A stretch of DNA of 64,000 bases from an uncultured Spirochaetota bacterium (GCA_963745235.1 CAVUXE010000035.1:160001-224000); one strand, 5' to 3'. Counted from the stretch's first letter, positions 9,969-21,654 are shown. Numbers and translations are program-made. Notes: a model not told the origin generated them from the sequence alone.

Positions 9969-11627
9969 TCACGTCCCGTTTGATCCCTTCAGCCTCCGAT
10001 AGCGGCGGATCAGCGCGTTGGTGGAGCTGTCGTGCGACAGGGCAGGGTCACTCCTGCTCTCGAGCTCGGGGACGATTTTCTTTGCCAGGACCTTGCCGAG
10101 CTCGACGCCCCACTGGTCGAAGGAGTCAATGCTCCAGATCGTCCCCTGCGTGAATACGCTGTGCTCGTACAGGGAAACCAGGAGCCCCAGTGTCTCCGGC
10201 GTCAACCGTTCGGCCAGGATAGTATTGGTGGGACGATTGCCCTCGAAGACCCGATGCGGCGCAAGAGTGCCGTCCGTTCCCTCGGCCTTGACTTCGTCTT
10301 CCGTCTTGCCGAATGCCAGCGCCTCTGTCTGCGCAAACAGATTTGCCATGAGGAGATCATGCTGGTTGCCCACCGGGTTCAAGGTCTTGCAGAAGCCGAT
10401 GAAATCGCACGGGATCAGCTTTGTCCCCTGATGGACGAGCTGATAGAAGGAGTGCTGGCCATTTGTGCCCGGTTCTCCCCAGTAAATGGGGGCCGTCTGA
10501 TAGCTGACGCCCCTGCCGTCAAGGGTGACATGCTTCCCGTTGCTCTCCATTGTCAGCTGCTGCAGGTACGCCGGGAATCGCTTGAGGTACTGGTCGTAGG
10601 GCAGCAGGGCGACGGTCTGGGCATCGAAGAAGTTGTTGTACCAGACCGTGAGCAGGCCCATGAGGACGGGAAGGTTCTTTTCGAATGGCGCCGCGCGGAA
10701 GTGGTCATCCATGGCACGAAAGCCGGAAAGCATCAACCGGAAGTTTTCCGGTCCGATTGCGATCATGGTCGACAGCCCGATGGCTGAGTCCATTGAGTAG
10801 CGCCCGCCCACCCAGTCCCAGAAGCCGAACATGTTTGCCGTGTCGATGCCGAACTTCGCCACCTCCTCCGCATTGGTGGAAACGGCGACAAAGTGCTTTC
10901 GCACGGCTTCCGCGCCGCCAAGCTTGCGCAGGCTCCACGCCCGGGCGGCATGCGCGTTGGTCAACGTTTCCAGGGTCGTGAAAGTCTTTGAGCAGATGAT
11001 GAACAGGGTCTCTTCAGGATCCAGGTCGCGCACTGTTTCAGAAAAGTCAGTGCCATCAACGTTGGAGACAAAGCGGAAGCTCATGTCCCGCCGGCTGTAG
11101 TGACGGAGGGCCTCGTAGGCCATCACGGGGCCAAGGTCCGACCCGCCTATCCCGATATTGACAACGTTGCGGATGCGCTTCCCCGTGTGTCCGCGCCACG
11201 CTCCGTCGCGCACCTGGTCGGCGAAGTCCGCCATCCCGTCAAGCACTGCCCGCACCTCGGGAACCACGTCCACGCCGTCCACCACAATCCGCTCGCCCTC
11301 CCGCGCCCGCAAGGCGGTGTGAAGGACGGCGCGCTTTTCCGTCACGTTGATCTTCTCTCCGCTGAACATCGCTTCCGTGCGCGCGCGAAGGCCGGACTCC
11401 TCCGCAAGTTGCAGCAGCAGCCGGATGGTCTCATCAGTCACCCGGTTCTTGGAGTAGTCGAGGTAGATACCGGCGGCTTCGACCGTGAAGCGCTCGCCTC
11501 GCCGGGGATCTTCCGCAAAGAGCTCGCGCAGGTGCAGCGTTCGCATCTTCCTGGAGTGCGCTTCCAGCGCCTTCCACGCCGGGCGTTCGGTGAGCGGCTG
11601 TATGGGTGCGGATGAGTTGCGGGTCAC
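9969..11627 (-). CDS. pgi: Glucose-6-phosphate isomerase
   Basis: [48 protein letters not shown]; GTG 11627 after GGAGG. Confidence 0.97.
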
Positions 11628-11816
11628 GGTCACCTCCTCCGGGCCTCCCACCAGGCCCGCTGTCCAGACACAATCTATTGCACAAAAGGTGCCTGCGTCA
11701 AAGCTCGTCAACTGATATTTCAGCCGCCGGCGCCAGCCGTCAGCCGCCCGCCTCCGGCGCTTGCCCGAGGATGTTGCAATTTATGATATTCGGCCCTACA
11801 GAGGAAAGGAGACGCA

Positions 11817-12299
11817 ATGTACAAGACGAAGAACGATCTGCCGGAGAAAGTTCGAGCCGAGATGGTGACGCTTCTGCAGCAGCGGCTCGCTGACTGTATT
11901 GACCTCGTGACACAGGCCAAGCAGGCCCACTGGAACGTCAAGGGACCGAGCTTCATCGCGCTGCATGAGTTGTTCGACGAGGTCTATGCCCACGCGGGTG
12001 ACTCCGCTGACCTGATCGCGGAGCGAATCGTCCAGCTTGGCGCTGTTGCCGAGGGCACCGCGCGTATCGCGGCAAAGCGGTCCGGGCTGGCAGAGTACCC
12101 TCTTGAGATTGCAAACGGCAAAGATCATGTCGAGGCGTTGTCTCGCGCCCTGGCCTACACGGCTGAGAGCATCCGCAGCTCGATCGACCGGGCGGACGAG
12201 ATGGGGGACAAAGGCACGGCCGACATTTTCACGGAGATTGTGAGGAGCCTCGACAAGGACCTGTGGTTTGTCGAGGCGCACCTCCAGGCCGAGCGATAG
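11817..12299 (+). CDS. dps: DNA starvation/stationary-phase protection protein
   Basis: KQAHWNVKGPSFIALHELFDE...DLIAERI...DKDLWF ferroxidase motifs. Confidence 0.95.
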   Translation: MYKTKNDLPEKVRAEMVTLLQQRLADCIDLVTQAKQAHWNVKGPSFIALHELFDEVYAHAGDSADLIAERIVQLGAVAEGTARIAAKRSGLAEYPLEIANGKDHVEALSRALAYTAESIRSSIDRADEMGDKGTADIFTEIVRSLDKDLWFVEAHLQAER

Positions 12300-12403
12300 C
12301 CCCCGGGCAGGCGCCGTGCGGGTTCCCCGAAAATCGCCAGGCCGCGGCAGGGAGTGCAGGCGCCGTGGCGCCTCCGGCGGACCGGGGCGCGCGCTCGCGG
12401 ATC

Positions 12404-13357
12404 TCATTTCTTTCGCCGGGACAGGACCGCGGCCAGGATGATGAGACCCTTGATGATCTGCTGGTAGTAGGATTGGACGTTGTACTGGTTGAGGAGGTTG
12501 TCGATGACTCCCAGGATGAGCACTCCCCAGAACGTCCCGATGGCCCCTCCTCCGCCCCCGCCCAGGATGCCGCCGCCGATGACCACAGCCGCGATGGCAT
12601 CCAGCTCAAAGCCCGCACCGAAGCTGGGCTGCGCAATTCCCAGCCGGGAGGAAAGGAGGACTCCTGCCATCGCCGCGAAGAACCCGCACAGGATGTAGGC
12701 AAGGAGCAGGTGTCCCTTGACGTTGATGCCGGCAAGCCGCACGGCTTCCTCGTTGCCGCCGATGGCAACGACGGCCCTGCCCGGAATTGTCCGGTTCAGG
12801 AAGACCCAGATGACGAAGAAGCAGATCACCATGATGACCGACGCGGTGGGCACGGGGCCAATGAATCCGCCGCCAAGAAGCGCTCGGAACGCAGGGTCCA
12901 CCGGTGTCTGCGGGGTTTCCGAGAAGACGTACGTCACGCCTCGAACCACACCCATGGTCGCAAGGGTGACGATGAAAGGCTGCAGCTTGAACCGCGCGAT
13001 AAAGAAGCCGTTTGCAGTGCCAACTGCTATCCCTGCCACGAGGGCCACCAGGATGGCCGCCGGCATGGGCATCTGTTTCTGGAGGCCCGTGGCCATGATC
13101 CCGCACAGCGCGACGGTGGAGCCCACCGACAGGTCGACGCCTCCGGTGAGGATCACCACCAGCATGCCGATGCTGATGAGGCCGTTGGTGACGATCTGGC
13201 GAGAGATGTTGATGAGGTTCCTGGAGGTGAAGAAGGTCTCAGAGACCAGCGAGCTGATGAGGATCAGCACGACGAAGATCCCGACAAAAGCGAAATCCGA
13301 CCAGCGGATCCTCGCCGTTTCCCGCATCCTGTCGACAAATGGAACCGCAGCCTTCAT
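12404..13357 (-). CDS. Sugar ABC transporter permease (RbsC-like, CUT2)
   Basis: ILTGGVDLSVGS, FIVTLAT, AIGGNEEAVRLAGI, FELDAIAAVVIGG. Confidence 0.93.
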   Translation of the reverse strand: MKAAVPFVDRMRETARIRWSDFAFVGIFVVLILISSLVSETFFTSRNLINISRQIVTNGLISIGMLVVILTGGVDLSVGSTVALCGIMATGLQKQMPMPAAILVALVAGIAVGTANGFFIARFKLQPFIVTLATMGVVRGVTYVFSETPQTPVDPAFRALLGGGFIGPVPTASVIMVICFFVIWVFLNRTIPGRAVVAIGGNEEAVRLAGINVKGHLLLAYILCGFFAAMAGVLLSSRLGIAQPSFGAGFELDAIAAVVIGGGILGGGGGGAIGTFWGVLILGVIDNLLNQYNVQSYYQQIIKGLIILAAVLSRRKK

Positions 13358-14868
13358 GTTTGTCCCCCGCTGTTGATCACGCCTGCCGCGCGCTGGAGCA
13401 GTATTTCCTCGTTCGCTTCTGCGCGGTCCAGGTTTCCTACGAGCCTGCCTTCCCGCATGACGAGAATCCGGTCACTCATTCCCAGGACCTCGGGCATCTC
13501 TGATGAGATGAGCAGCACGCCCACTCCTGTTTCGACCAGGCTGTTGATGAGGTGGTAGATTTCCACCTTCGCGCCGATGTCCACCCCGCGGGTGGGCTCG
13601 TCAAGGAGAAGCACCTTGGGCTGCGAAAGGAGCCACTTGGCAAGCACCACCTTCTGCTGGTTTCCTCCGCTCAACGTCCGCACGGATCTGCCGAGAGCCG
13701 CCGTCCGCACGGCCAGCGCATCCACCTTTTCCTGCACAAGGACCGTCTGCCGCGCGGTGTCCAGGAACATGCCGTGGCCCATGCGGGGAAGGGAGGCAAG
13801 GCTCACGTTGTCGCGGACCGAGCAGCTCATCACCAGGCCGTCCCGCTTGCGGTCCTCCGTCACCAGGGAGACCCCCGCGTTCACCGCGTCCCGGGGGGAC
13901 CGCAGCCGCACGGGCTTCCCCTGGACGCTGATGCGTCCCGAGGTTGCCGGCTCCGCGCCGAAGATGCTCCTCGCAACCGCTGTCCTCCCGCTTCCGACGA
14001 GCCCGAACATGCCAACCACCTCACCGCGGCGCACGGAGAAGGTGACTTTTTGAAACTCTCCCTCCCGGCCCAGGTCCTCGACGCAAAGCACCTCTTCTCC
14101 CGGGGGCACGGAGCGCCGGGGATAGATCTCCTCCACCGACCGTCCCACCATCATCCTGATCAGGTCATCCTGGCTCACGGATACGGTGGGCACCGTGCCC
14201 ACCACCTCGCCGTCACGAAGCACCGTGATGCGGTCAGCGATCTCGAAAACCTCTTCCAGGCGATGGGAGATGTACAGCACGAGCGTGCCCTCCGCCTTCA
14301 GGCGGCGGATGAGGGAGAAAAGAAGGGCCAGCTCGTCCTTGGAGAGCACCGCGGAGGGCTCGTCAAGGATGAGAATCCTCGGCTTCTCCGCCAGCGCCTT
14401 GGCGATCTCCACGACCTGCTGGTGGGATACGCTGAGCCGCGAGACCCGTGTGCGCGCGTCCAGCGCGGTGAACCCCAGGCCGCTGAGGATTGTGCGGGCC
14501 TGGGAGCGCGCCTGGCGCCAGTGGACCCAGAGGCCGCCGCTGTTCGGCAGCCTTCCCATGAGGATGTTCTCCGCGATGGTCAGGTGCGGCACGAGGCTGA
14601 ACTCCTGGTGGACGGCCCGAATGCCCAGCCTGTTCGCCTGGTGGGGAGTGCTCATTGTCACGGGCGCTCCGCCGATCACGATCCTCCCGGAATCCGGAGT
14701 GACTGCTCCCGAGAGGACATTCATCAGGGTCGACTTGCCCGCGCCGTTCTCTCCGACAAGGGCGTGGATCTCCCCGATGGATGCGGACATGCTCACGTCC
14801 CGGAGGGCCACGGTGCCTCCGAATCTTTTGTAGATGCTCTGCATGGACAAGAAGCAATCACTGCTCAT
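13354..14868 (-). CDS. Sugar ABC transporter ATP-binding protein (RbsA-like, two NBDs)
   Basis: GENGAGKST, ILDEP, GLVGSGRT, EDRKRDG, LSGGNQQKV, LDEPTRGVDIGAK. Confidence 0.95.
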   Translation of the reverse strand: MSSDCFLSMQSIYKRFGGTVALRDVSMSASIGEIHALVGENGAGKSTLMNVLSGAVTPDSGRIVIGGAPVTMSTPHQANRLGIRAVHQEFSLVPHLTIAENILMGRLPNSGGLWVHWRQARSQARTILSGLGFTALDARTRVSRLSVSHQQVVEIAKALAEKPRILILDEPSAVLSKDELALLFSLIRRLKAEGTLVLYISHRLEEVFEIADRITVLRDGEVVGTVPTVSVSQDDLIRMMVGRSVEEIYPRRSVPPGEEVLCVEDLGREGEFQKVTFSVRRGEVVGMFGLVGSGRTAVARSIFGAEPATSGRISVQGKPVRLRSPRDAVNAGVSLVTEDRKRDGLVMSCSVRDNVSLASLPRMGHGMFLDTARQTVLVQEKVDALAVRTAALGRSVRTLSGGNQQKVVLAKWLLSQPKVLLLDEPTRGVDIGAKVEIYHLINSLVETGVGVLLISSEMPEVLGMSDRILVMREGRLVGNLDRAEANEEILLQRAAGVINSGGQT

Positions 14869-16313
14869 AGGGGTGGCGCGGGGAATGCATTATGGACAAG
14901 GATCACCTTCTGCTCGGTCATCTCGTCAAGCGTATCATGAAGCCCCTCGCGGCCGTACCCGCTCATCTTGGTCCCGCCGAAGGGAAGGTTCTCCGAGCGG
15001 AGGGCCGAGGACCAGTTCACGATGACCCCTCCCACCTCGAGCCGGTCCGCAATCGTGAGGGCACGGGAGATATCACTCGTGAAGACGGCCGCCTGAAGAC
15101 CGAATGAGCTGTCATTTGCCATGGTCACTGCCTCAGCCTCGGTGGAGAAGGGGACCACGGGAGCGACGGGACCGAACGTCTCTTCCCTGAAGAGCGGAAC
15201 GGAGCTGGGCACGTCCGCGAGCACCGTTGGCGTCACGAAGGATCCGCGTCTCTGCCCGCCGAAGAGCAGCCGAGCGCCGGCTTTCACCGCCTCCACGGTG
15301 GCGGCCTCCACTTTCCGGGCGGCTTCCTCGCTGATCAGGGGGCCTACGTCCGTCTCCTCCCGCAGCTGGTCTCCCACGCAAAGCGTCCTTGCCCTGGCGG
15401 AAAGCCGCTCGCAGAAATCTCCGTAGACCCGTCGATCCACGAAGACCCTCTTCACTGCGCAGCAGATCTGGCCGTTGCCCCGGGCCAGGCGGCCCAGGAC
15501 CACGGCCTCCGCCGCTTTCTCCAGGTCCGCGTCCGCGCAGACGATGGTGGCGTCATTCCCTCCGAGCTCGAGGTGGACCTTCTTCAGCGTTTCCGCGCCG
15601 AGCTGTGCCAGACGGATCCCCACCGCCGTGCTCCCCGTGACCGAGACCATGCGCACCACCGGGCTGCGGGCCAGCAGCTCTCCGACCTGCTCCCCCGGCC
15701 CCGTTACCATCTGGTGAGCTCCGCGGGGAAGACCTGCGTCTTCCAGGATGCCGGCGATTTTCAGGAGAGTGAGGGGGCAGGCGCTGGGAGGTTTCGCAAT
15801 CACGGCGTTGCCGGCGGCAAGGGCGGGAGCGGCCTTGTGCGCATACAGCTCCACCGGATAGTTGAAAGGAACGATGGCAGCGATGACGCCCAGCGGCTGG
15901 CGAACGGTCATGGCGAAATGCCTTTCATTGCCGGGCACCGCGTCCATGGGAATCATGCGGCCGAAGATGCGCCTGCCTTCCTCCGCAAACCCCCGGAAGA
16001 TCCGAGCCGTGACGTCCACCTCGTCCCTGGTCTGGCGGATCGGCTTGCCGTTCTCCCGGGCCAGGAGCGTTGCAAGCTCCTCCCTGCGGTCATGGATGAC
16101 ATCCGCGGCCGCGGCCAGGATGGCGGACCGCTTGTGCGCGGGCAGAGCCCGCATGCGCCCGCTGCCCTCCACCGCCGCCTGCAGGGCGCGCTGCACGTCC
16201 GCCGCCGCGGCAACGGGGACGGTGTCGATGGCTTCCGCGGTCCCGGGGTTGCTGACTGTTTGAGTCTTTCCATCTCCAGCGGCCACCCACTGGCCGTCGA
16301 TGAGCATTTTCAT
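14865..16313 (-). CDS. Aldehyde dehydrogenase
   Basis: PFNYP, TGSTAVG, LELGGND, GQICC (catalytic Cys), EETFGPV, PFGG. Confidence 0.93.
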   Translation of the reverse strand: MKMLIDGQWVAAGDGKTQTVSNPGTAEAIDTVPVAAAADVQRALQAAVEGSGRMRALPAHKRSAILAAAADVIHDRREELATLLARENGKPIRQTRDEVDVTARIFRGFAEEGRRIFGRMIPMDAVPGNERHFAMTVRQPLGVIAAIVPFNYPVELYAHKAAPALAAGNAVIAKPPSACPLTLLKIAGILEDAGLPRGAHQMVTGPGEQVGELLARSPVVRMVSVTGSTAVGIRLAQLGAETLKKVHLELGGNDATIVCADADLEKAAEAVVLGRLARGNGQICCAVKRVFVDRRVYGDFCERLSARARTLCVGDQLREETDVGPLISEEAARKVEAATVEAVKAGARLLFGGQRRGSFVTPTVLADVPSSVPLFREETFGPVAPVVPFSTEAEAVTMANDSSFGLQAAVFTSDISRALTIADRLEVGGVIVNWSSALRSENLPFGGTKMSGYGREGLHDTLDEMTEQKVILVHNAFPAPPL

Positions 16314-16332
16314 GTGTGATCTCCGGAAAGGA

Positions 16333-16360
16333 CCCCGGCCTCTGAGCGCAGAGGCCGGGG
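16333..16360. other. Intercistronic 12-bp stem-loop after the binding-protein gene
   Basis: CCCCGGCCTCTG-agcg-CAGAGGCCGGGG; typical mRNA-stabilising or partial-termination hairpin. Confidence 0.7.
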
Positions 16361-16367
16361 AAAGATG

Positions 16368-17321
16368 CTAAAACACGCTCTCTGGAATGTAGAACCTGGC
16401 CACGTTGTCGATCGTGATCAGAGGCGACGGCAGAACGGTGTCCTTCTCCGACTGCGCGCCCGCCAGGAGAGCCATGAGCCGGGTGAATCCGGCGCGGCCT
16501 ATCTGGTCAGAGCTGTTCAGCCCCGTCGCGGCGTAGTTCGTCTTTTTCATGATCTGTTCCAGTGCAGCCTTCTCGCCGTCCACCCCGCAGATGAAGATCT
16601 GGCTGGTCCGGCCGGCATCACCTATGGCCTTCTGGGCGCCCAGCGCCATGGAGTCATTCTCCGCGAATACGGCGTCAATCTGGTTGTACTTTGCAAGCAA
16701 GTCCTCCATGAGCTTGAACCCGCCGTCTGAGCTCCAGCCGCCGAAGTTGGGCGCCATGACGACCTCTATCTTGCTCTTCTTCACTTCGGAGAGCATGCCG
16801 TTGGTGCGGTCAAGGCCGATGGAGTTGTCGGCAGGCCCCCCGCGCAGCACCACAAGGCGGCCCTTGCCGCCCAGCCGCTTCACGATGTACTCCCCGTCCT
16901 GCTTTCCGATGGCAAGGTTGTCCGGGCCCACCCAGCTCGTGTAGTCCCCGCCTTTGAGCTTGCGGTCGACCAGGACCACGGGCACTCCCGCCTTCTTGAT
17001 TGCGTCCAGAGCCTCTGGAGCCGCCTCGAGCCAGGCGGCGCTTATGATGAGCCCGCTCACGTTCTGCGCAAGCACGTCTTCGACATCCGAGGTCAGCTTC
17101 TGCGCGTCCCCCTTCGCATCAGTGGTGACGAGCTTGATGTTGCCGAAGTGCTCACACTCCTGTTTCACCGCCTGCGACATGCCGATGAAATACGGGCTCG
17201 TGAGCGCCAGGTTCACCATGCCGATCTTGATCTGGCCTTTCCCCTGCGCTGCCGCGGAAGTGGCGGAAAATGCCAGGGCAACCGCGCAAAGAATGAACAC
17301 CAGGAACCGGAGCTTTTTCAT
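16368..17321 (-). CDS. Sugar ABC transporter substrate-binding protein (RbsB-like)
   Basis: Signal peptide MKKLRFLVFILCAVALAFSATSAAA, PVVLVDR, VFAENDSMALGA, GVDG; RBS GGGAGGAG. Confidence 0.93.
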   Translation of the reverse strand: MKKLRFLVFILCAVALAFSATSAAAQGKGQIKIGMVNLALTSPYFIGMSQAVKQECEHFGNIKLVTTDAKGDAQKLTSDVEDVLAQNVSGLIISAAWLEAAPEALDAIKKAGVPVVLVDRKLKGGDYTSWVGPDNLAIGKQDGEYIVKRLGGKGRLVVLRGGPADNSIGLDRTNGMLSEVKKSKIEVVMAPNFGGWSSDGGFKLMEDLLAKYNQIDAVFAENDSMALGAQKAIGDAGRTSQIFICGVDGEKAALEQIMKKTNYAATGLNSSDQIGRAGFTRLMALLAGAQSEKDTVLPSPLITIDNVARFYIPESVF

Positions 17322-17385
17322 ATGTCTCCTCCCTTTCGGTTGAGAGATGGGGCCGGAAGACTTCCAGCCTTGGCCCTCACGAGCA

Positions 17386-17402
17386 TGCATGCTCCGTGCC
17401 AA
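17386..17402 (-). promoter_or_regulatory. sigma54 (-24/-12) promoter of the ABC operon
   Basis: TTGGCACGGAGCATGCA = TGGCAC-N5-ATGC, with exact GG-N10-GC spacing. Confidence 0.8.
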
Positions 17403-17551
17403 GGCGGAGGGTCGACAGAAAGCCGGTCGGTGTGTTTTGCAACTTATTGTATCACAGCAGGTTATGCGACGGAATGGAAGAAGCGTTGACAGCTGCATCC
17501 AGCCGCGGATATAGTGAATGTGTAGAATTTACCCAATTCGCGGGAGTCGGC

Positions 17552-18893
17552 TTGAGTAATAATCACGAGCAGCGCGCCGCATCCAATCTGCTCATTGTGG
17601 ACGACAAGGTGAAGCTTTGCCGGAGCCTTGCCCGCAATTTCGAGCACGTGGGGTTTACCACATCCATTGCCACAACGGGGCAGGAAGCCGTTGCGCGGTT
17701 CTCGGCCGCCCGGATGGACGCGGTGCTTCTGGACATCATGCTCGGGGAGGAAAGCGGCATCGACATCCTCACGAAGCTTCTCGCCGTGGACAAGAATGTC
17801 CCCGTGATCATGATCACCGGCTACGCCTCGGTGGACAGCGCGGTGCAATCTCTGAAGCTCGGCGCGTTCGACTACGTGAAGAAGCCGCTGGACTTCGAGG
17901 AGCTCCTGAAGACCGTGGAGAAAGCGTGCGAGTTCTCCCGCCTGCGGGAGGAGAACAGCAAGCTGCGGTCCCGGCTCAAGGAGCTGTCAGCAACCATCGT
18001 TACCCGGGATGCCCGCATGGGGGCACTGATCCGCAAGGTGGAAAAGCTTGCCGCCACCGACCTTCCGCTGCTGATCTGTGGAGAGAGCGGGACGGGGAAA
18101 GAGGTCCTGGCTGACTACGCGCATTCGGCGTCCGCGCGAAGCGCCGCGGCCATGGTGAAGATCAACTGCGTCGCCTTCCCCGAGACGCTTCTCGACAACG
18201 AGCTCTTCGGCCATGAGAAGGGCGCGTACACGGGGGCGGATTCCGTTTTCAAGGGCCTGTTCGAGAAAGCAGACGGGAGCACCCTCTTTCTTGATGAGAT
18301 CGGCGACATGCCGCTCGGCATCCAGGCCAAAATCCTCAGGACGCTGCAGAACAACGAGATCAGGCGGCTGGGAGGAAATGACACCATTCGAGTGAACGTG
18401 CGCTTCATTGCCGCGACGAACAAGGACCTCGCGGAGCTGATCAGGAAGGGCCAGTTCCGGGAGGACCTTTTCTACCGGCTGAACGCCGCGGTTCTTTCCA
18501 TCCCCTCTCTCAGGGAACGCCGCGACGACATCCCGCTCCTCGTGGAGCATTTCCTTCGCGGCTATCCCGTCGCGCAAGGATGTGACCGCCGAGGTGATGG
18601 AAAAGTTCCTCCCGTACGACTGGCCCGGAAACGTTCGGGAGCTGAAGAACGTGGTCAACTACGCGGCGGCAATGTCCTCGGGAGACAGCATCGGGATCGA
18701 GGACCTTCCGGTGCATTTCCTGGAAGGCACGCGCGCCGCGGCCGGCGGGAATATCCGCGAGGACATGGAGAGGGCCCTCATCCTCAAGGTCCTGCAGAGC
18801 ACCAAGTACAACCGTTCGAAGACCGCCGAGCTCCTGATCATGAGCCGCAAGACCCTCTACACCAAGATGGCGAAGTATGGTCTCAACTCCTGA
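17552..18893 (+). CDS. sigma54-dependent response regulator (NtrC family; REC-AAA+-Fis HTH), frameshifted at ~18570
   Basis: LLIVDD, VLLDIML, GESGTGKE, ELFGHEKGAYTGA, LFLDEIGD, FREDLFYRL; WPGNVREL and the HTH lie in another frame (18582-18893). Confidence 0.9.
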
Positions 18894-20727
18894 GGCGGTT
18901 TCGACGGAGACCGATCTCCTTCGCCTTGCCCACGTGTGCCTGGACTACGGGCAGGTGGAGGCGCTCAAGGATGTCAACCTTGTGCTTCGCGGTTCGACCG
19001 TCCACGCCATCGTAGGTGAGCACGGGGCGGGGAAGTCTTCCCTCGGGATGGTGATCAGCGGCAACGTGCGGCCGCGCCGGGGACACGTGGAGCTGGACAA
19101 CCGGCGCTTCGACTCCCTCACCACCCGCACGGCCCACCGGCTGGGCATCGAGATGGTCTACCAGCAGGTGCAGCTCAACACCTTCTTCACGGTGGCGGAG
19201 AATATCTTCTTCCTGAACAAGTCACTGGCGCGGCGCGGCCTGCTCAGCCAGCGGCGCCTCGCACGCGAGGCCCAGACATTCCTTGACCAGCAAGGCTTCA
19301 ACCTGGACCCGACCGAGGTCGTCAAGAACCTCAACCTCCCCGACCGGGTCCTCATCTCCATCCTTGCGGCTCTGCAGAAACGGCCCCGGCTCCTCATCCT
19401 GGACGAAGCGCTGGAAAAGCTCTCTTCTTCGGATTTGCCGAAAATCATGCGCGCGCTGAACCAGATGAAATCCGAGGGGATGGCAATCCTCTTCATCACG
19501 CACCGCATCGACGACGTGTATGATCTTGCCGACCGGGTGAGCATCGTGAAAAACGGGGAGATCCTGGTGACCGATGATGTCGGACACATCGACAAGATGA
19601 ATCTCCTGCGCCTGACATACACCCAGGTCTACTCCCTGGAAAACGCCGGCAACCGAAAGCGGGAGTTCAACCAGTTCCTCAAGTACAACGAGGCGGTCCT
19701 CCTCAATCTCCCGGTGAACCTCATCGTGGTCGACGGGGAAGAGCGGGTGAAGATCGTGAACGAGCGCTGCAAGGGGTATTTTCACCTTGGGGACGCTCCT
19801 ATCGCCAACCAGCCCCTGGAGAGGCTTCTCGGTGCGGAGAACCAGGAGACCCTCTCGCTCATCCGCGAGGCCTTCCGGTCCGAGGAGGGGAACGCCTTCT
19901 ACCATGTTCCGCTTGCCATCGCGGGGGACGACACCGTGAACAACGTGCGGACGCTTCCGATCTACGACGAGGAGCGGCTCATCGGGAACATCATCATCAT
20001 CGAGGACATCACGGAGTTCGACAAGCTGCAGAAACAGGTCATCCTCTCGGAGAAGCTCGCCTCCGTGGGGCTCCTTGCCGCGGGGGTGGCGCACGAGATC
20101 AACAACCCCCTGGAGATCGTCTACAACTACCTCAAGTACATCAAGTACTCCTTCGATGACGCGAAGCTCCATGAGACGGTGGACGAGCTGCACGAGGAGA
20201 TCACCTACATCGCGGGGATCGTTCGCGACCTCCTGTCCCTCTCCGGCACCGCACAGGTCCAGAGGGAAGGGATCGACATCAACGAGATGATCAGGAGCAC
20301 CGTGGGCCTGCTTCGCCACAGCGCGCACGAGAAGCTCATCACCATGGCATTCGGCTCGCAGGAAAGGGAGCTGACCCTTACGGTCAACCGGAACGAGATC
20401 AAGCAGGTGATCCTCAACCTCGTGAAGAACAGCTTCGAGGCCATGCCGGGCGGCGGGCAGATCAGCATCGAAACCTCGCGGGCGCTGGACGAACGGGGAC
20501 GACCGTGCGCTTCGATCGTGTTCAGCGACACGGGCCCCGGGATACCGGACGCGAACCTCACCAACGTCTTCATCCCTTTCTACTCCACCAGGAAGGGAAA
20601 GGGGGATCACGTCGGGCTTGGTCTTTCCATCTGTTACGGGATCATCAAGCGCCATGACGGGAGCATGAGCGTGAGGAACCTGGAGCGCGCCGGGTGCCGC
20701 TTCACCATACGGCTTCCCCTGCCATGA
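18877..20727 (+). CDS. Hybrid sensor: ABC ATPase domain + PAS + histidine kinase (HisKA-HATPase_c)
   Basis: GEHGAGKSS, MVYQQ, LILDE, FITH; PAS segment ending IEDITE; AHEINNPL, NLVKNS, DTGPGI, PFYST, GLGLSI; one uninterrupted ORF, no hydrophobic segments. Confidence 0.92.
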   Translation: MVSTPEAVSTETDLLRLAHVCLDYGQVEALKDVNLVLRGSTVHAIVGEHGAGKSSLGMVISGNVRPRRGHVELDNRRFDSLTTRTAHRLGIEMVYQQVQLNTFFTVAENIFFLNKSLARRGLLSQRRLAREAQTFLDQQGFNLDPTEVVKNLNLPDRVLISILAALQKRPRLLILDEALEKLSSSDLPKIMRALNQMKSEGMAILFITHRIDDVYDLADRVSIVKNGEILVTDDVGHIDKMNLLRLTYTQVYSLENAGNRKREFNQFLKYNEAVLLNLPVNLIVVDGEERVKIVNERCKGYFHLGDAPIANQPLERLLGAENQETLSLIREAFRSEEGNAFYHVPLAIAGDDTVNNVRTLPIYDEERLIGNIIIIEDITEFDKLQKQVILSEKLASVGLLAAGVAHEINNPLEIVYNYLKYIKYSFDDAKLHETVDELHEEITYIAGIVRDLLSLSGTAQVQREGIDINEMIRSTVGLLRHSAHEKLITMAFGSQERELTLTVNRNEIKQVILNLVKNSFEAMPGGGQISIETSRALDERGRPCASIVFSDTGPGIPDANLTNVFIPFYSTRKGKGDHVGLGLSICYGIIKRHDGSMSVRNLERAGCRFTIRLPLP

Positions 20728-20781
20728 GAGAGGCCGCGGCGCCCGTCAAGGAGGACGCCGCGTCTTCCTCTGTTCTCTCTC

Positions 20782-21654
20782 CTAGCGGAACAGCTGCAGG
20801 ACCGTCTGCGGTTTCGTGTTTGCCTGCGCCAGCATGGCGGTTGAGGACTGCACAAGGATGCGGTCCTTCACGAACTCCACCATCTGCGCCGCCATGTCGG
20901 TGTCCCTGATCAGGCTCTCGGCCGCCTGGAGGTTCTCCGCGCCGACAGCCAGCCCCTTCATGGCGTACTCCAGCCTGTTCTGGTAGGCTCCCAGGTCCGC
21001 CCTCTGCTTGTTGACGAGCCTCAGGGCGTGGTCCAGCACCCCGATGGCCGCGTTGGCGTGATCCGGGGAGGACAGGGAGATGAAGGTGGCGTTGGCCGGT
21101 AGGCCGTTGGCTCCCTGGATCCCCAGCCCCTGGGCGGTCATGGTGCCGATGTACACGCGGGTTCTCTGGTCCATGTTGGCCCCGATCTGCAGCCACATGC
21201 TGCCGGTGACCGCGTTCTCTCCCGTGGAGCGGGCGAAACGGCCGGTGAGCATGTTCATGCCGTTGAACTGGGCGTGGGAGGCGATGCGGTTGACCTCTGC
21301 CACGAGGGCGGAAACCTCCACCTGGATCTGCATACGGTCTTCGTCGGAGTAGATGCCGTTGGAGGCCTGCACCGACAGCTCGCGCAGCCTCTGCATGATG
21401 TCCTGGCTCTCCTGGAGGTAGCCTTCCGCGGTCTGGATGAAGGAGATGCCGTTCTGAGCGTTGTTTTCCGCCTGGCGGAGGCCGCGGATCTGGGAACGCA
21501 TCTTCTCCGAGACTGCCAGCCCGGATGCGTCGTCCCCCGCGCGGTTGATGCGCATGCCGGACGACAACTTCTCCATGTCCTTGTCCCCCTGGATGTTATT
21601 GAAGAACAACTGGCGGTCGGCGAAGAGGGCGCTCATGTTGTGATTGATGACCAT
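20782..21654 (-). CDS. flaB: Flagellin, spirochaete periplasmic flagellar core protein (FlaB class)
   Basis: MVINHNMSA...[31 protein letters not shown]...QIGANMDQR...[12 protein letters not shown]; short 290-aa form. Confidence 0.95.

Follow-up and report, generated by a model that had tools for sequence, protein, structure and literature searches.

How a substrate outside the cell is signalled to a kinase inside it is a question usually answered by a membrane sensor. In the Bce modules, an ATP-binding cassette (ABC) transporter is read by a histidine kinase that has no sensing domain itself, and the two-component pair controls the transporter genes (PMC6978683, PMC10314905). The kinase, BceS, sits in the membrane and touches the permease BceB via membrane helices (PMC10314905), and the Bce transporter serves antimicrobial-peptide resistance and is described as driving bacitracin efflux (PMC6978683). 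The first of these sources also names DctA or DcuB with DcuS-DcuR, and PstSCAB-PhoU with PhoR-PhoB, as cases in which the transporter sets the state of the kinase and the kinase is deregulated when the transporter is missing (PMC6978683). The control of an ABC importer by a sigma-54 activator is known wiring as well, as in AauS-AauR with RpoN and the AatJQMP importer (PMC7962211). Here we describe a locus at positions 12,404 to 20,727 of a stretch of 64,000 nucleotides from an uncultured Spirochaetota bacterium (GCA_963745235.1 CAVUXE010000035.1:160001-224000; the whole stretch is called the window below), in which an NtrC/AtoC-type response regulator and a soluble histidine kinase are encoded divergently from a CUT2-type sugar importer. 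The kinase carries a copy of the transporter's ATP-binding domain and probably reads the transporter directly. The locus appears to be a form of transporter-coupled two-component sensing, and a soluble kinase bearing a transporter domain appears not to have been described: full-text searches, with subscription journals outside their coverage, found no literature on histidine kinases fused to an ABC ATPase domain.

The locus consists of six genes and a 230-bp control region (17322-17552) between the two divergent operons, and its gene order is conserved in 12 genomes of the genus. The source is a draft genome of 104 contigs and 5.85 Mb that is 86% complete. Near-identical DNA was found in peat, wetland and soil metagenomes, and the database records of the kinase's relatives carry the label Spirochaetia.

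The kinase and its association with CUT2 importers

The kinase begins with an ATPase domain at residues ~11-248 (the ABC_tran match covers 30-179), followed by a PAS domain at 265-378, a HisKA domain at 398-456 with H406, and a HATPase_c domain at 505-615. Neither the Pfam matches nor the AlphaFold2 (AF2) model, which has a mean predicted local distance difference test score (pLDDT) of 75, contains a membrane helix, and no NCBIfam family scores above its cut-off. The stretch 14-257 of the kinase aligns with positions 1-243 of YtfR, AraG, AlsA and XylG, and residues 268-615 match AtoS. The core is that of a HisKA-type kinase, with H406, N514, D551, G553, G555 and G580-G582 invariant in 22 sequences. 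The ATPase domain keeps G47, G52 and K53 of the Walker A motif, Q96 of the Q-loop, and D176 and E177 of Walker B in 76/76 relatives, and H209 of the H-loop in 67 of them. The signature LSGGQ occurs in none of the 76; the window's kinase has LNLPDR(V), and the family as a whole follows the pattern L-[NS]-L-[SPA]-[DE]-[RQ]. The domain is therefore unlikely to be a second motor, and the motifs suggest that the two ATP sites of a kinase dimer, which would have good binding motifs but lack a proper signature, would bind ATP and hydrolyse it poorly.

In a tree of 51 domains, the 20 kinase ATPase domains form a single group (support 97/96) that clusters with the N-terminal halves of CUT2 ATPases (95/83), the C-terminal halves being separate (100/100). 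This topology points to a single old capture of a CUT2 N-half as the origin of the kinase domain. The 120 best database matches are 49-98% identical to the window's kinase and full length except for two; 118 of these matches carry ABC_tran, HisKA and HATPase_c together, the exceptions being the two truncated ones. No PDB chain joining an ABC ATPase part to a kinase part was found.

There are at least four clades of this kinase in the genus, ~70-84%, 43-48%, 32% and 30% identical to the window's copy, and the window's own genome holds two more copies, on contigs C9 and C28. A kinase match was present in 25 of 41 close genomes (including 22 of the 24 in the family) and in 12 of 301 genomes sampled across the phylum. 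Profile scans with the kinase alignment returned mostly ordinary kinases, together with 6 full-length relatives in genome contigs and 3 in metagenome contigs. We scanned with Pfam the neighbours of 16 kinase genes, taken from paralogs within the genus, from two other lineages of spirochaetes and from a KSB3 bacterium. In 15 cases the gene immediately upstream of the kinase encodes a sigma-54 activator, the sixteenth regulator not having been resolved by the open-reading-frame caller, and parts of a CUT2 importer lie beside all 16. A second set of 13 loci, drawn from 11 additional Spirochaetota genomes, has the activator upstream in 13/13 and CUT2 parts adjacent in 12/13, which brings the loci examined closely to 29, with CUT2 parts beside the kinase at 28 and a sigma-54 activator directly upstream at 28. 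A first-pass annotation of this DNA had proposed a sigma-54 circuit made of a divergent NtrC-type regulator and an ATPase-domain kinase beside a CUT2 operon, and had expected homologous kinases to keep company with such operons; both expectations agree with these counts, and we regard a sigma-54-dependent circuit that is part of a conserved module as well supported.

The genes that accompany the importer vary by locus and include glycoside hydrolases, sugar kinases and dehydrogenases, with an aldehyde dehydrogenase in the window; thus each copy of the kinase seems to be tied to its own sugar. One locus (L196; G137:C34, 3332-12015) is a one-domain-motor variant, in which the regulator, the kinase, a binding protein, a permease and a single 265-residue canonical ABC ATPase (LSGGQRQ) follow one another on the same strand, with GatZ-like and PfkB genes coming next. 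Among the loci examined, none clearly had a permease and a binding protein with no motor ATPase; the contig of L197 ends short of the position that an ATPase gene would occupy. Another locus (L100; G023:C2, 9006-15856) has two regulator-kinase pairs of this family in a back-to-back arrangement, and each pair faces a separate CUT2 operon that has its own -24/-12 site.

The sigma-54 circuit and its control region

The importer combines a Peripla_BP_4 binding protein, a fused two-domain ATPase and a BPD_transp_2 permease, the set that characterizes CUT2 importers (TC 3.A.1.2); its predicted substrate is a sugar or a sugar-like compound. None of the transporter genes reaches the cut-off of an NCBIfam equivalog model, the ribose, arabinose and xylose systems being nearest. 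For the permease, whose orthologs are 73-97% identical, the closest models are the ribose and arabinose permeases, both under cut-off. The binding protein starts with ATG at 17321, has a signal-peptide-like N-terminus and is weakly RbsB-like, with orthologs 71-94% identical. In the transport ATPase, the N-half has a weak signature and good catalytic motifs (GENGAGKST, LSVSHQQ, ILILDE, ISHR), and the C-half has an arginine in Walker A and lacks the H-loop histidine (GLVGSGRTA, LSGGNQQ, LLLDE, ISSE), motifs that indicate the usual division of labour between the halves. The top NCBIfam model for the aldehyde dehydrogenase is lactaldehyde dehydrogenase (488 bits against a cut-off of 650), and the gene is found in every orthologous locus where the contig extends far enough. 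These domain matches agree with the first-pass annotation, which had read here an ABC importer and aldehyde dehydrogenase operon with a full two-domain ATPase of its own and had called the nucleotide-binding domain of the kinase surplus to transport, the operon already encoding both ATPase domains. It had also singled out the presence of only one permease gene; the count is right, but it is no anomaly and is normal for this class of transporter. Ribose-type permeases work as homodimers.

Upstream of this operon lies a predicted sigma-54 promoter, TGGCACGGAGCATGCA, whose -12 end sits 64 nt ahead of the ATG of the binding-protein gene. It was sought with the -24/-12 consensus (TGGCAC-N5-TTGCW-like, in which ten bases separate GG at -24 from GC at -12), a pattern that by itself is not above chance, as the window holds 3 one-mismatch matches with 2.02 expected and at least 3 arise in 30 of 100 shuffles. 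The window and each of the 11 orthologous intergenic regions of the genus nevertheless share a site in this position that scores 9-11 out of 11, with a variable spacer, and a site scoring at least 10/11 lies directly before a CUT2 gene at 10 of 15 paralogous or distant loci (one ambiguous, four with none). Given this positional conservation, we judge the site to be more than a chance match, so that the earlier claim of a -24/-12 element pointing into the operon is upheld. Transcription of the operon is expected to start near 17375 (-), the position that follows from the usual spacing between a sigma-54 element and the start. Strains from different sequencing runs differ at 17384, beside the -12 element (C to T, two runs), and at 17429 in the spacer (G to A, one run), and the core of the site is unaltered among runs. 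The genome has an rpoN gene on contig C9 (Sigma54_DBD, 191 bits).

In the alignment of the window with the 11 orthologous intergenic regions (12 sequences), the best-kept blocks include the ribosome-binding site of the binding-protein gene and a 15-bp palindrome between it and the -12 element. The arms of the palindrome change symmetrically in three loci, from CCGG..CCGG to CTGG..CCAG, and the predicted 5' end of the leader, which includes the palindrome, folds into a hairpin of -14 kcal/mol. The palindrome is a candidate for either an mRNA hairpin in the leader or an operator, since the paired changes of the arms fit both. We rejected it as the site of a global regulator, because only one other exact copy exists in the genome, inside pgi. 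That copy of CCGGAAnnnTTCCGG is at 10737-10751, 6.6 kb away in the phosphoglucose isomerase gene, where ~0.7 would be expected by chance.

The divergent regulator-kinase operon has a predicted sigma-70-type promoter of its own, in which TTGACA is present in 12/12 rows of the alignment and the second hexamer is TATAGT, TATAAT or TACAGT. Next to it is a 17-bp dyad, all 10 specified positions of which are kept in 12/12 regions. The centre of the dyad is ~150 bp from the expected sigma-54 start, on its upstream side, and we infer from its conservation that it is the best candidate for the enhancer or binding site of the activator; a search of the control region for a second copy found just a half-site at the regulator start codon. 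The dyad also covers the expected sigma-70 start, near 17522 (+), and therefore suggests that the activator represses its own operon (negative autoregulation). The first-pass annotation had suggested that the locus is a self-contained positive feedback loop, which is not supported; the regulator-kinase operon has its own conserved sigma-70-like promoter and does not stand behind the sigma-54 promoter. It had also expected integration host factor (IHF) or enhancer sites in the spacer between the dyad and the sigma-54 promoter. The spacer is AT-rich, as stated there, and a bend in it is possible, but an IHF site was rejected, as there is no match to WATCAANNNNTTR with one mismatch or fewer in 17323-17552, and the candidate enhancer is the dyad instead. 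The control region as a whole thus holds two predicted promoters, a candidate enhancer and a leader hairpin, all of them conserved.

The regulator has the domains of the NtrC family, including the GAYTGA loop and GESGTGKE, and is closest to AtoC among named models. It starts with TTG at 17552 and stops with TGA at 18891-18893, overlapping the kinase ATG by 17 nt. The earlier description of a receiver-AAA+-helix-turn-helix activator overlapping the kinase gene therefore holds for the domains and the overlap, but the gene as assembled is broken into two frames, one with REC and Sigma54_activat and the other with AAA_lid_14 and HTH_8. The break falls in a linker of variable length (HFL-KDVT) that has 19 nt in the window and multiples of three in the orthologs. 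Otherwise near-identical contigs of runs X2, X3 and X5, from three studies, omit one letter at 18570 and have C for G at 18572, and with one letter fewer their regulator is therefore in a single open frame. Orthologs are in one frame at 7 of the 11 loci that include this part of the gene (L082-L085, L087, L088 and L089), and splits of this kind also occur in several relatives whose genomes were assembled into few contigs. These comparisons lead us to regard the break as either an assembly error or a rare strain variant. The rpoN gene (L081; C9 ~13100-14600) is also broken over two frames, with the N-terminal and core parts in one and the DNA-binding part in the other; the switch is near residues RYVLP and, as with the regulator gene, is probably an assembly error.

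How the kinase may read the importer

We propose that the locus is a two-component sigma-54 switch for the importer, in which the ATPase domain of the kinase docks on the permease and reads its state, a proposal to which we give an even chance. The regulator and the kinase would be transcribed from their own sigma-70-type promoter, and the phosphorylated regulator would activate the -24/-12 promoter of the binding protein-aldehyde dehydrogenase-ATPase-permease operon; both of these steps we regard as well supported. The conservation of the dyad suggests that the regulator binds there, ~150 bp upstream, and damps its own promoter. As the kinase has no membrane segment, synteny, descent and modelling make the ATP-binding domain derived from a CUT2 ATPase N-half the likely input. 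A dimer of the kinase would dock on the coupling helices of the RbsC-like permease dimer, replacing or competing with the transport ATPase, and the state of the permease, with a loaded binding protein bound or not, would pass through the PAS domain to the HisKA/HATPase core. In this role the ATPase domain probably binds ATP and hydrolyses it poorly, so that it would act as a conformational reader and not as a motor.

The docking step was modelled with two copies of the permease and kinase residues 1-255. The models scored 0.61, 0.61 and 0.59, against 0.00 for the highest of three controls; agreement between runs is at least 89% of contacts, with a partner pLDDT of at least 78. Among solved complexes 116 of 157 attain the mark of the tool, as do 2 of 215 mismatched pairs, a calibration that is rough for the present case of custom alignments and three chains. 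In the model, permease residues 189-212 (the GGNEEA coupling region) sit in a groove made by the Q-loop and the helical subdomain of the kinase (residues 82-123), which is the canonical contact of ABC transporters as far as the predicted geometry goes. A sequence search of the PDB gave 0 matches to a CUT2 permease structure, and therefore the pass was not copied from a solved permease homologue. We take the pass to indicate that the surface is still compatible; it supports binding without showing it. The suggestion of the first-pass annotation that two proteins with nucleotide-binding domains share one permease fits a complex model that passes its controls, but is not demonstrated by it. Sharing of the permease by the kinase and the ATPase is the mechanism with the best support, and we hold it about as probable as its contrary.

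Several observations weigh against a kinase that reads the permease. A tight sigma-54 promoter leaves unexplained how the binding protein and the permease would be present before induction. The docking pass may reflect no more than the general resemblance of any ABC ATPase domain to the partner of such a permease; close cousins of true partners also pass in the calibration of the tool. Variability is higher at the interface residues than elsewhere in the domain (entropy 2.30 vs 1.70 in 76 sequences and 2.17 vs 1.59 in 11), although this weighs little, because the same columns are more variable in true transport halves too (N-half 1.85 vs 1.49, C-half 1.65 vs 1.46). We found no cognate-specific likeness between the kinase interface and the locus's own transport ATPase, the ranks among 11 being scattered with mean z of 0.23 and 0.27, and no clade-specific interface positions (0/22). 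There is one clear exception to the linkage, L191 (G174:C31, 7662-16130), where the regulator-kinase pair is accompanied by a LacI-type regulator, araB, araD and an araA-like gene, with no ABC transporter within 9 kb; at L108 the queries used found no CUT2 part. Among paralogs, no domain diverges more than PAS (16-30% identity in the distant clade, with 3 of 114 positions invariant), as would be expected if it, and not the ATPase domain, set the specificity for the ligand. Finally, the only RNA evidence is one contig of 163 nt (run X19; 18637-18799), inside the regulator gene.

If docking occurs, a wider picture can be drawn, to which we give somewhat less credence than to its rejection. The permease dimer would have two alternative partners, the ATPase, with which it imports, and the kinase dimer, with which it forms a transmembrane receptor; there, docking of the loaded binding protein would close the two hydrolysis-poor ATPase domains of the kinase and trigger autophosphorylation. 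Each paralogous importer would have its plug-in kinase, and this would be a mode of sugar sensing under sigma-54 in Spirochaetota, KSB3 and other phyla.

The divergence of the PAS domain among paralogs that stand beside different sugar loci is also what favours the first alternative, in which this domain senses a sugar or metabolite in the cytoplasm and the ATPase domain stays off the permease, gating the kinase as a module for nucleotide-dependent dimerisation or energy state. The strict retention of Walker A, Walker B and the Q-loop, which implies that nucleotide binding is under selection, would fit such a module, as would the pair at L191 with no transporter nearby and the tests of interface conservation that gave no positive signal. 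It would leave unexplained, however, both the origin of the domain from a CUT2 N-half and its near-constant adjacency to CUT2 genes (28/29 loci), and it does not account for a complex model that passes its controls with a canonical groove contact, nor for the invariance of the Q-loop glutamine (76/76). In transporters this glutamine lies at the contact with the membrane domain. We therefore consider cytoplasmic sensing unlikely, though it is the strongest of the alternatives.

The motifs admit a second alternative, in which the partner of the kinase domain is not the permease alone but one of the nucleotide-binding domains of the transport ATPase. The two would form a mixed ATP sandwich, in which the kinase uses the LSGGQ of its partner and reports the turnover of the ATPase, that is, flux. 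The kinase has catalytic-side motifs and no signature, and the transport C-half has LSGGNQQ, a weakened Walker A and no H-loop histidine; moreover, at L196 a single canonical domain (LSGGQRQ) is encoded in the same operon as the regulator-kinase pair. In the window, however, the transport ATPase is fused and its halves already complete each other, and a kinase is generally expected to form a homodimer via HisKA, which would bring two like domains together, so that we hold this pairing to be distinctly improbable. That the circuit is decaying, the activator gene truly frameshifted and the locus a relic, would fit the splitting of both the regulator and rpoN over two frames as assembled, but we give this very little weight, given the near-identical contigs of three other studies without the extra base, the open state of the remaining genes with promoter and dyad intact, and the fact that two broken regulatory genes in a 104-contig, 86%-complete draft, with similar splits in relatives, point to assembly errors.

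If docking of the kinase on the permease is correct, signals would have a new way across the membrane, through a kinase that plugs into an importer by a copy of the importer's motor domain. Transport and signalling would then be seen to share a domain by natural reuse, with the conformational cycle of the importer serving as a signalling device. The family is large, with several paralogs per genome, each by its own sugar locus, and so could help to assign regulators and inducers to sugar-uptake operons in uncultured bacteria of soil, peat and sediment.

The locus among its neighbours and among known systems

The features of the locus are listed in Table 1. The hairpin beyond the kinase gene is followed directly by a flagellin gene (20782-21654, -), convergent with the kinase gene and 97% identical in the relative L082. 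At the other end, a ferritin-like (Dps/ferritin) gene (11817-12299, +) converges on the 3' end of the transporter operon. A fifth operon gene at 11796-12407 (-) was considered and rejected, as it is not conserved, has an odd codon-position composition and is the antisense shadow of the ferritin-like gene; the operon terminates at the permease gene. Nothing in the 12 orthologous loci matches the stretch 11712-12403, and therefore the neighbourhood differs among species.

Table 1. Genes and control elements of the locus, in window coordinates
Feature	Coordinates	Strand	Basis
CUT2-type permease (RbsC/AraH-like), last operon gene	12404..13357	-	BPD_transp_2, E 1.2e-47
Transport ATPase, two nucleotide-binding domains	13354..14868	-	two ABC_tran stretches; AraG/XylG/RbsA-like
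Aldehyde dehydrogenase	14865..16313	-	Aldedh, E 1.8e-157
Periplasmic sugar-binding protein, first operon gene	16368..17321	-	Peripla_BP_4, E 6e-51
Conserved 15-bp palindrome, consensus CCGGAAnACTTCCGG	17353..17367	-	between -12 element and ribosome-binding site
Sigma-54 (-24/-12) promoter, predicted	17386..17401	-	TGGCACGGAGCATGCA, one mismatch, GG-N10-GC
AT-rich spacer, candidate enhancer to promoter	17430..17470	.	59% AT; partly conserved
Sigma-70-type promoter of regulator-kinase operon, predicted	17486..17515	+	TTGACA-N18-TATAGT, 11/12 matches
17-bp dyad TGnGTA-N5-TACnCA, candidate activator site/operator	17519..17535	.	conservation
NtrC/AtoC-type response regulator, frameshifted near 18570	17552..18893	+	REC, sigma-54 AAA+, lid, HTH_8
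Soluble histidine kinase, 616 residues	18877..20727	+	ABC_tran, PAS_4, HisKA, HATPase_c (Pfam)
Terminator-like hairpin past kinase gene	20749..20769	+	nine-pair stem, weak T tail; consensus match only

New for this locus are the explanation of the break in the regulator frame, the dissection of the control region, a docking test that passes its controls and the record of an exception locus. With six genes and a short control region, the locus is a compact and testable case.

Among two-component systems, AtoS-AtoC is nearest to this pair, in the kinase core (268-615) as well as in the regulator. To our knowledge, AtoS and AauS sense via membrane or periplasmic parts and neither carries an ABC ATPase domain; nor do we know of a kinase carrying a transporter domain in the Bce, DctA-DcuS or Pst-PhoR systems. 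The ATPase domain of the kinase shares its ancestry with the N-half of CUT2 importer ATPases, and the signatures of the two are alike in their weakness (LSVSHQQ in the transport ATPase, LNLPDRV in the kinase). The transport ATPase, however, has two domains, whereas the kinase has one, which is joined to PAS, HisKA and HATPase_c and lacks a second half that could provide LSGGQ.

With the Bce-type modules of Firmicutes (BceAB with BceS-BceR), the proposed circuit shares the logic of a transporter-reading kinase that controls the transporter genes. BceS resides in the membrane, whereas the kinase here is soluble and has a covalently fused ATPase domain, and the Bce transporter is described as one of peptide resistance, in contrast to the binding-protein-dependent CUT2 importer with its BPD_transp_2 permease. 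BceR belongs to the OmpR-type regulators, unlike the sigma-54 activator of this locus. The likeness to Bce modules is one of logic and not of membership, the kinase of a Bce module being a membrane protein and this one not. The DcuS and Pst co-sensors have in common with our proposal that the transporter sets the state of the kinase, and they offer a way round the problem that no permease would be present before induction. In the Pst system the link runs through PhoU. Kinase and transporter are separate in these co-sensors and share no domain, whereas in the present locus the two have an ATPase domain in common.

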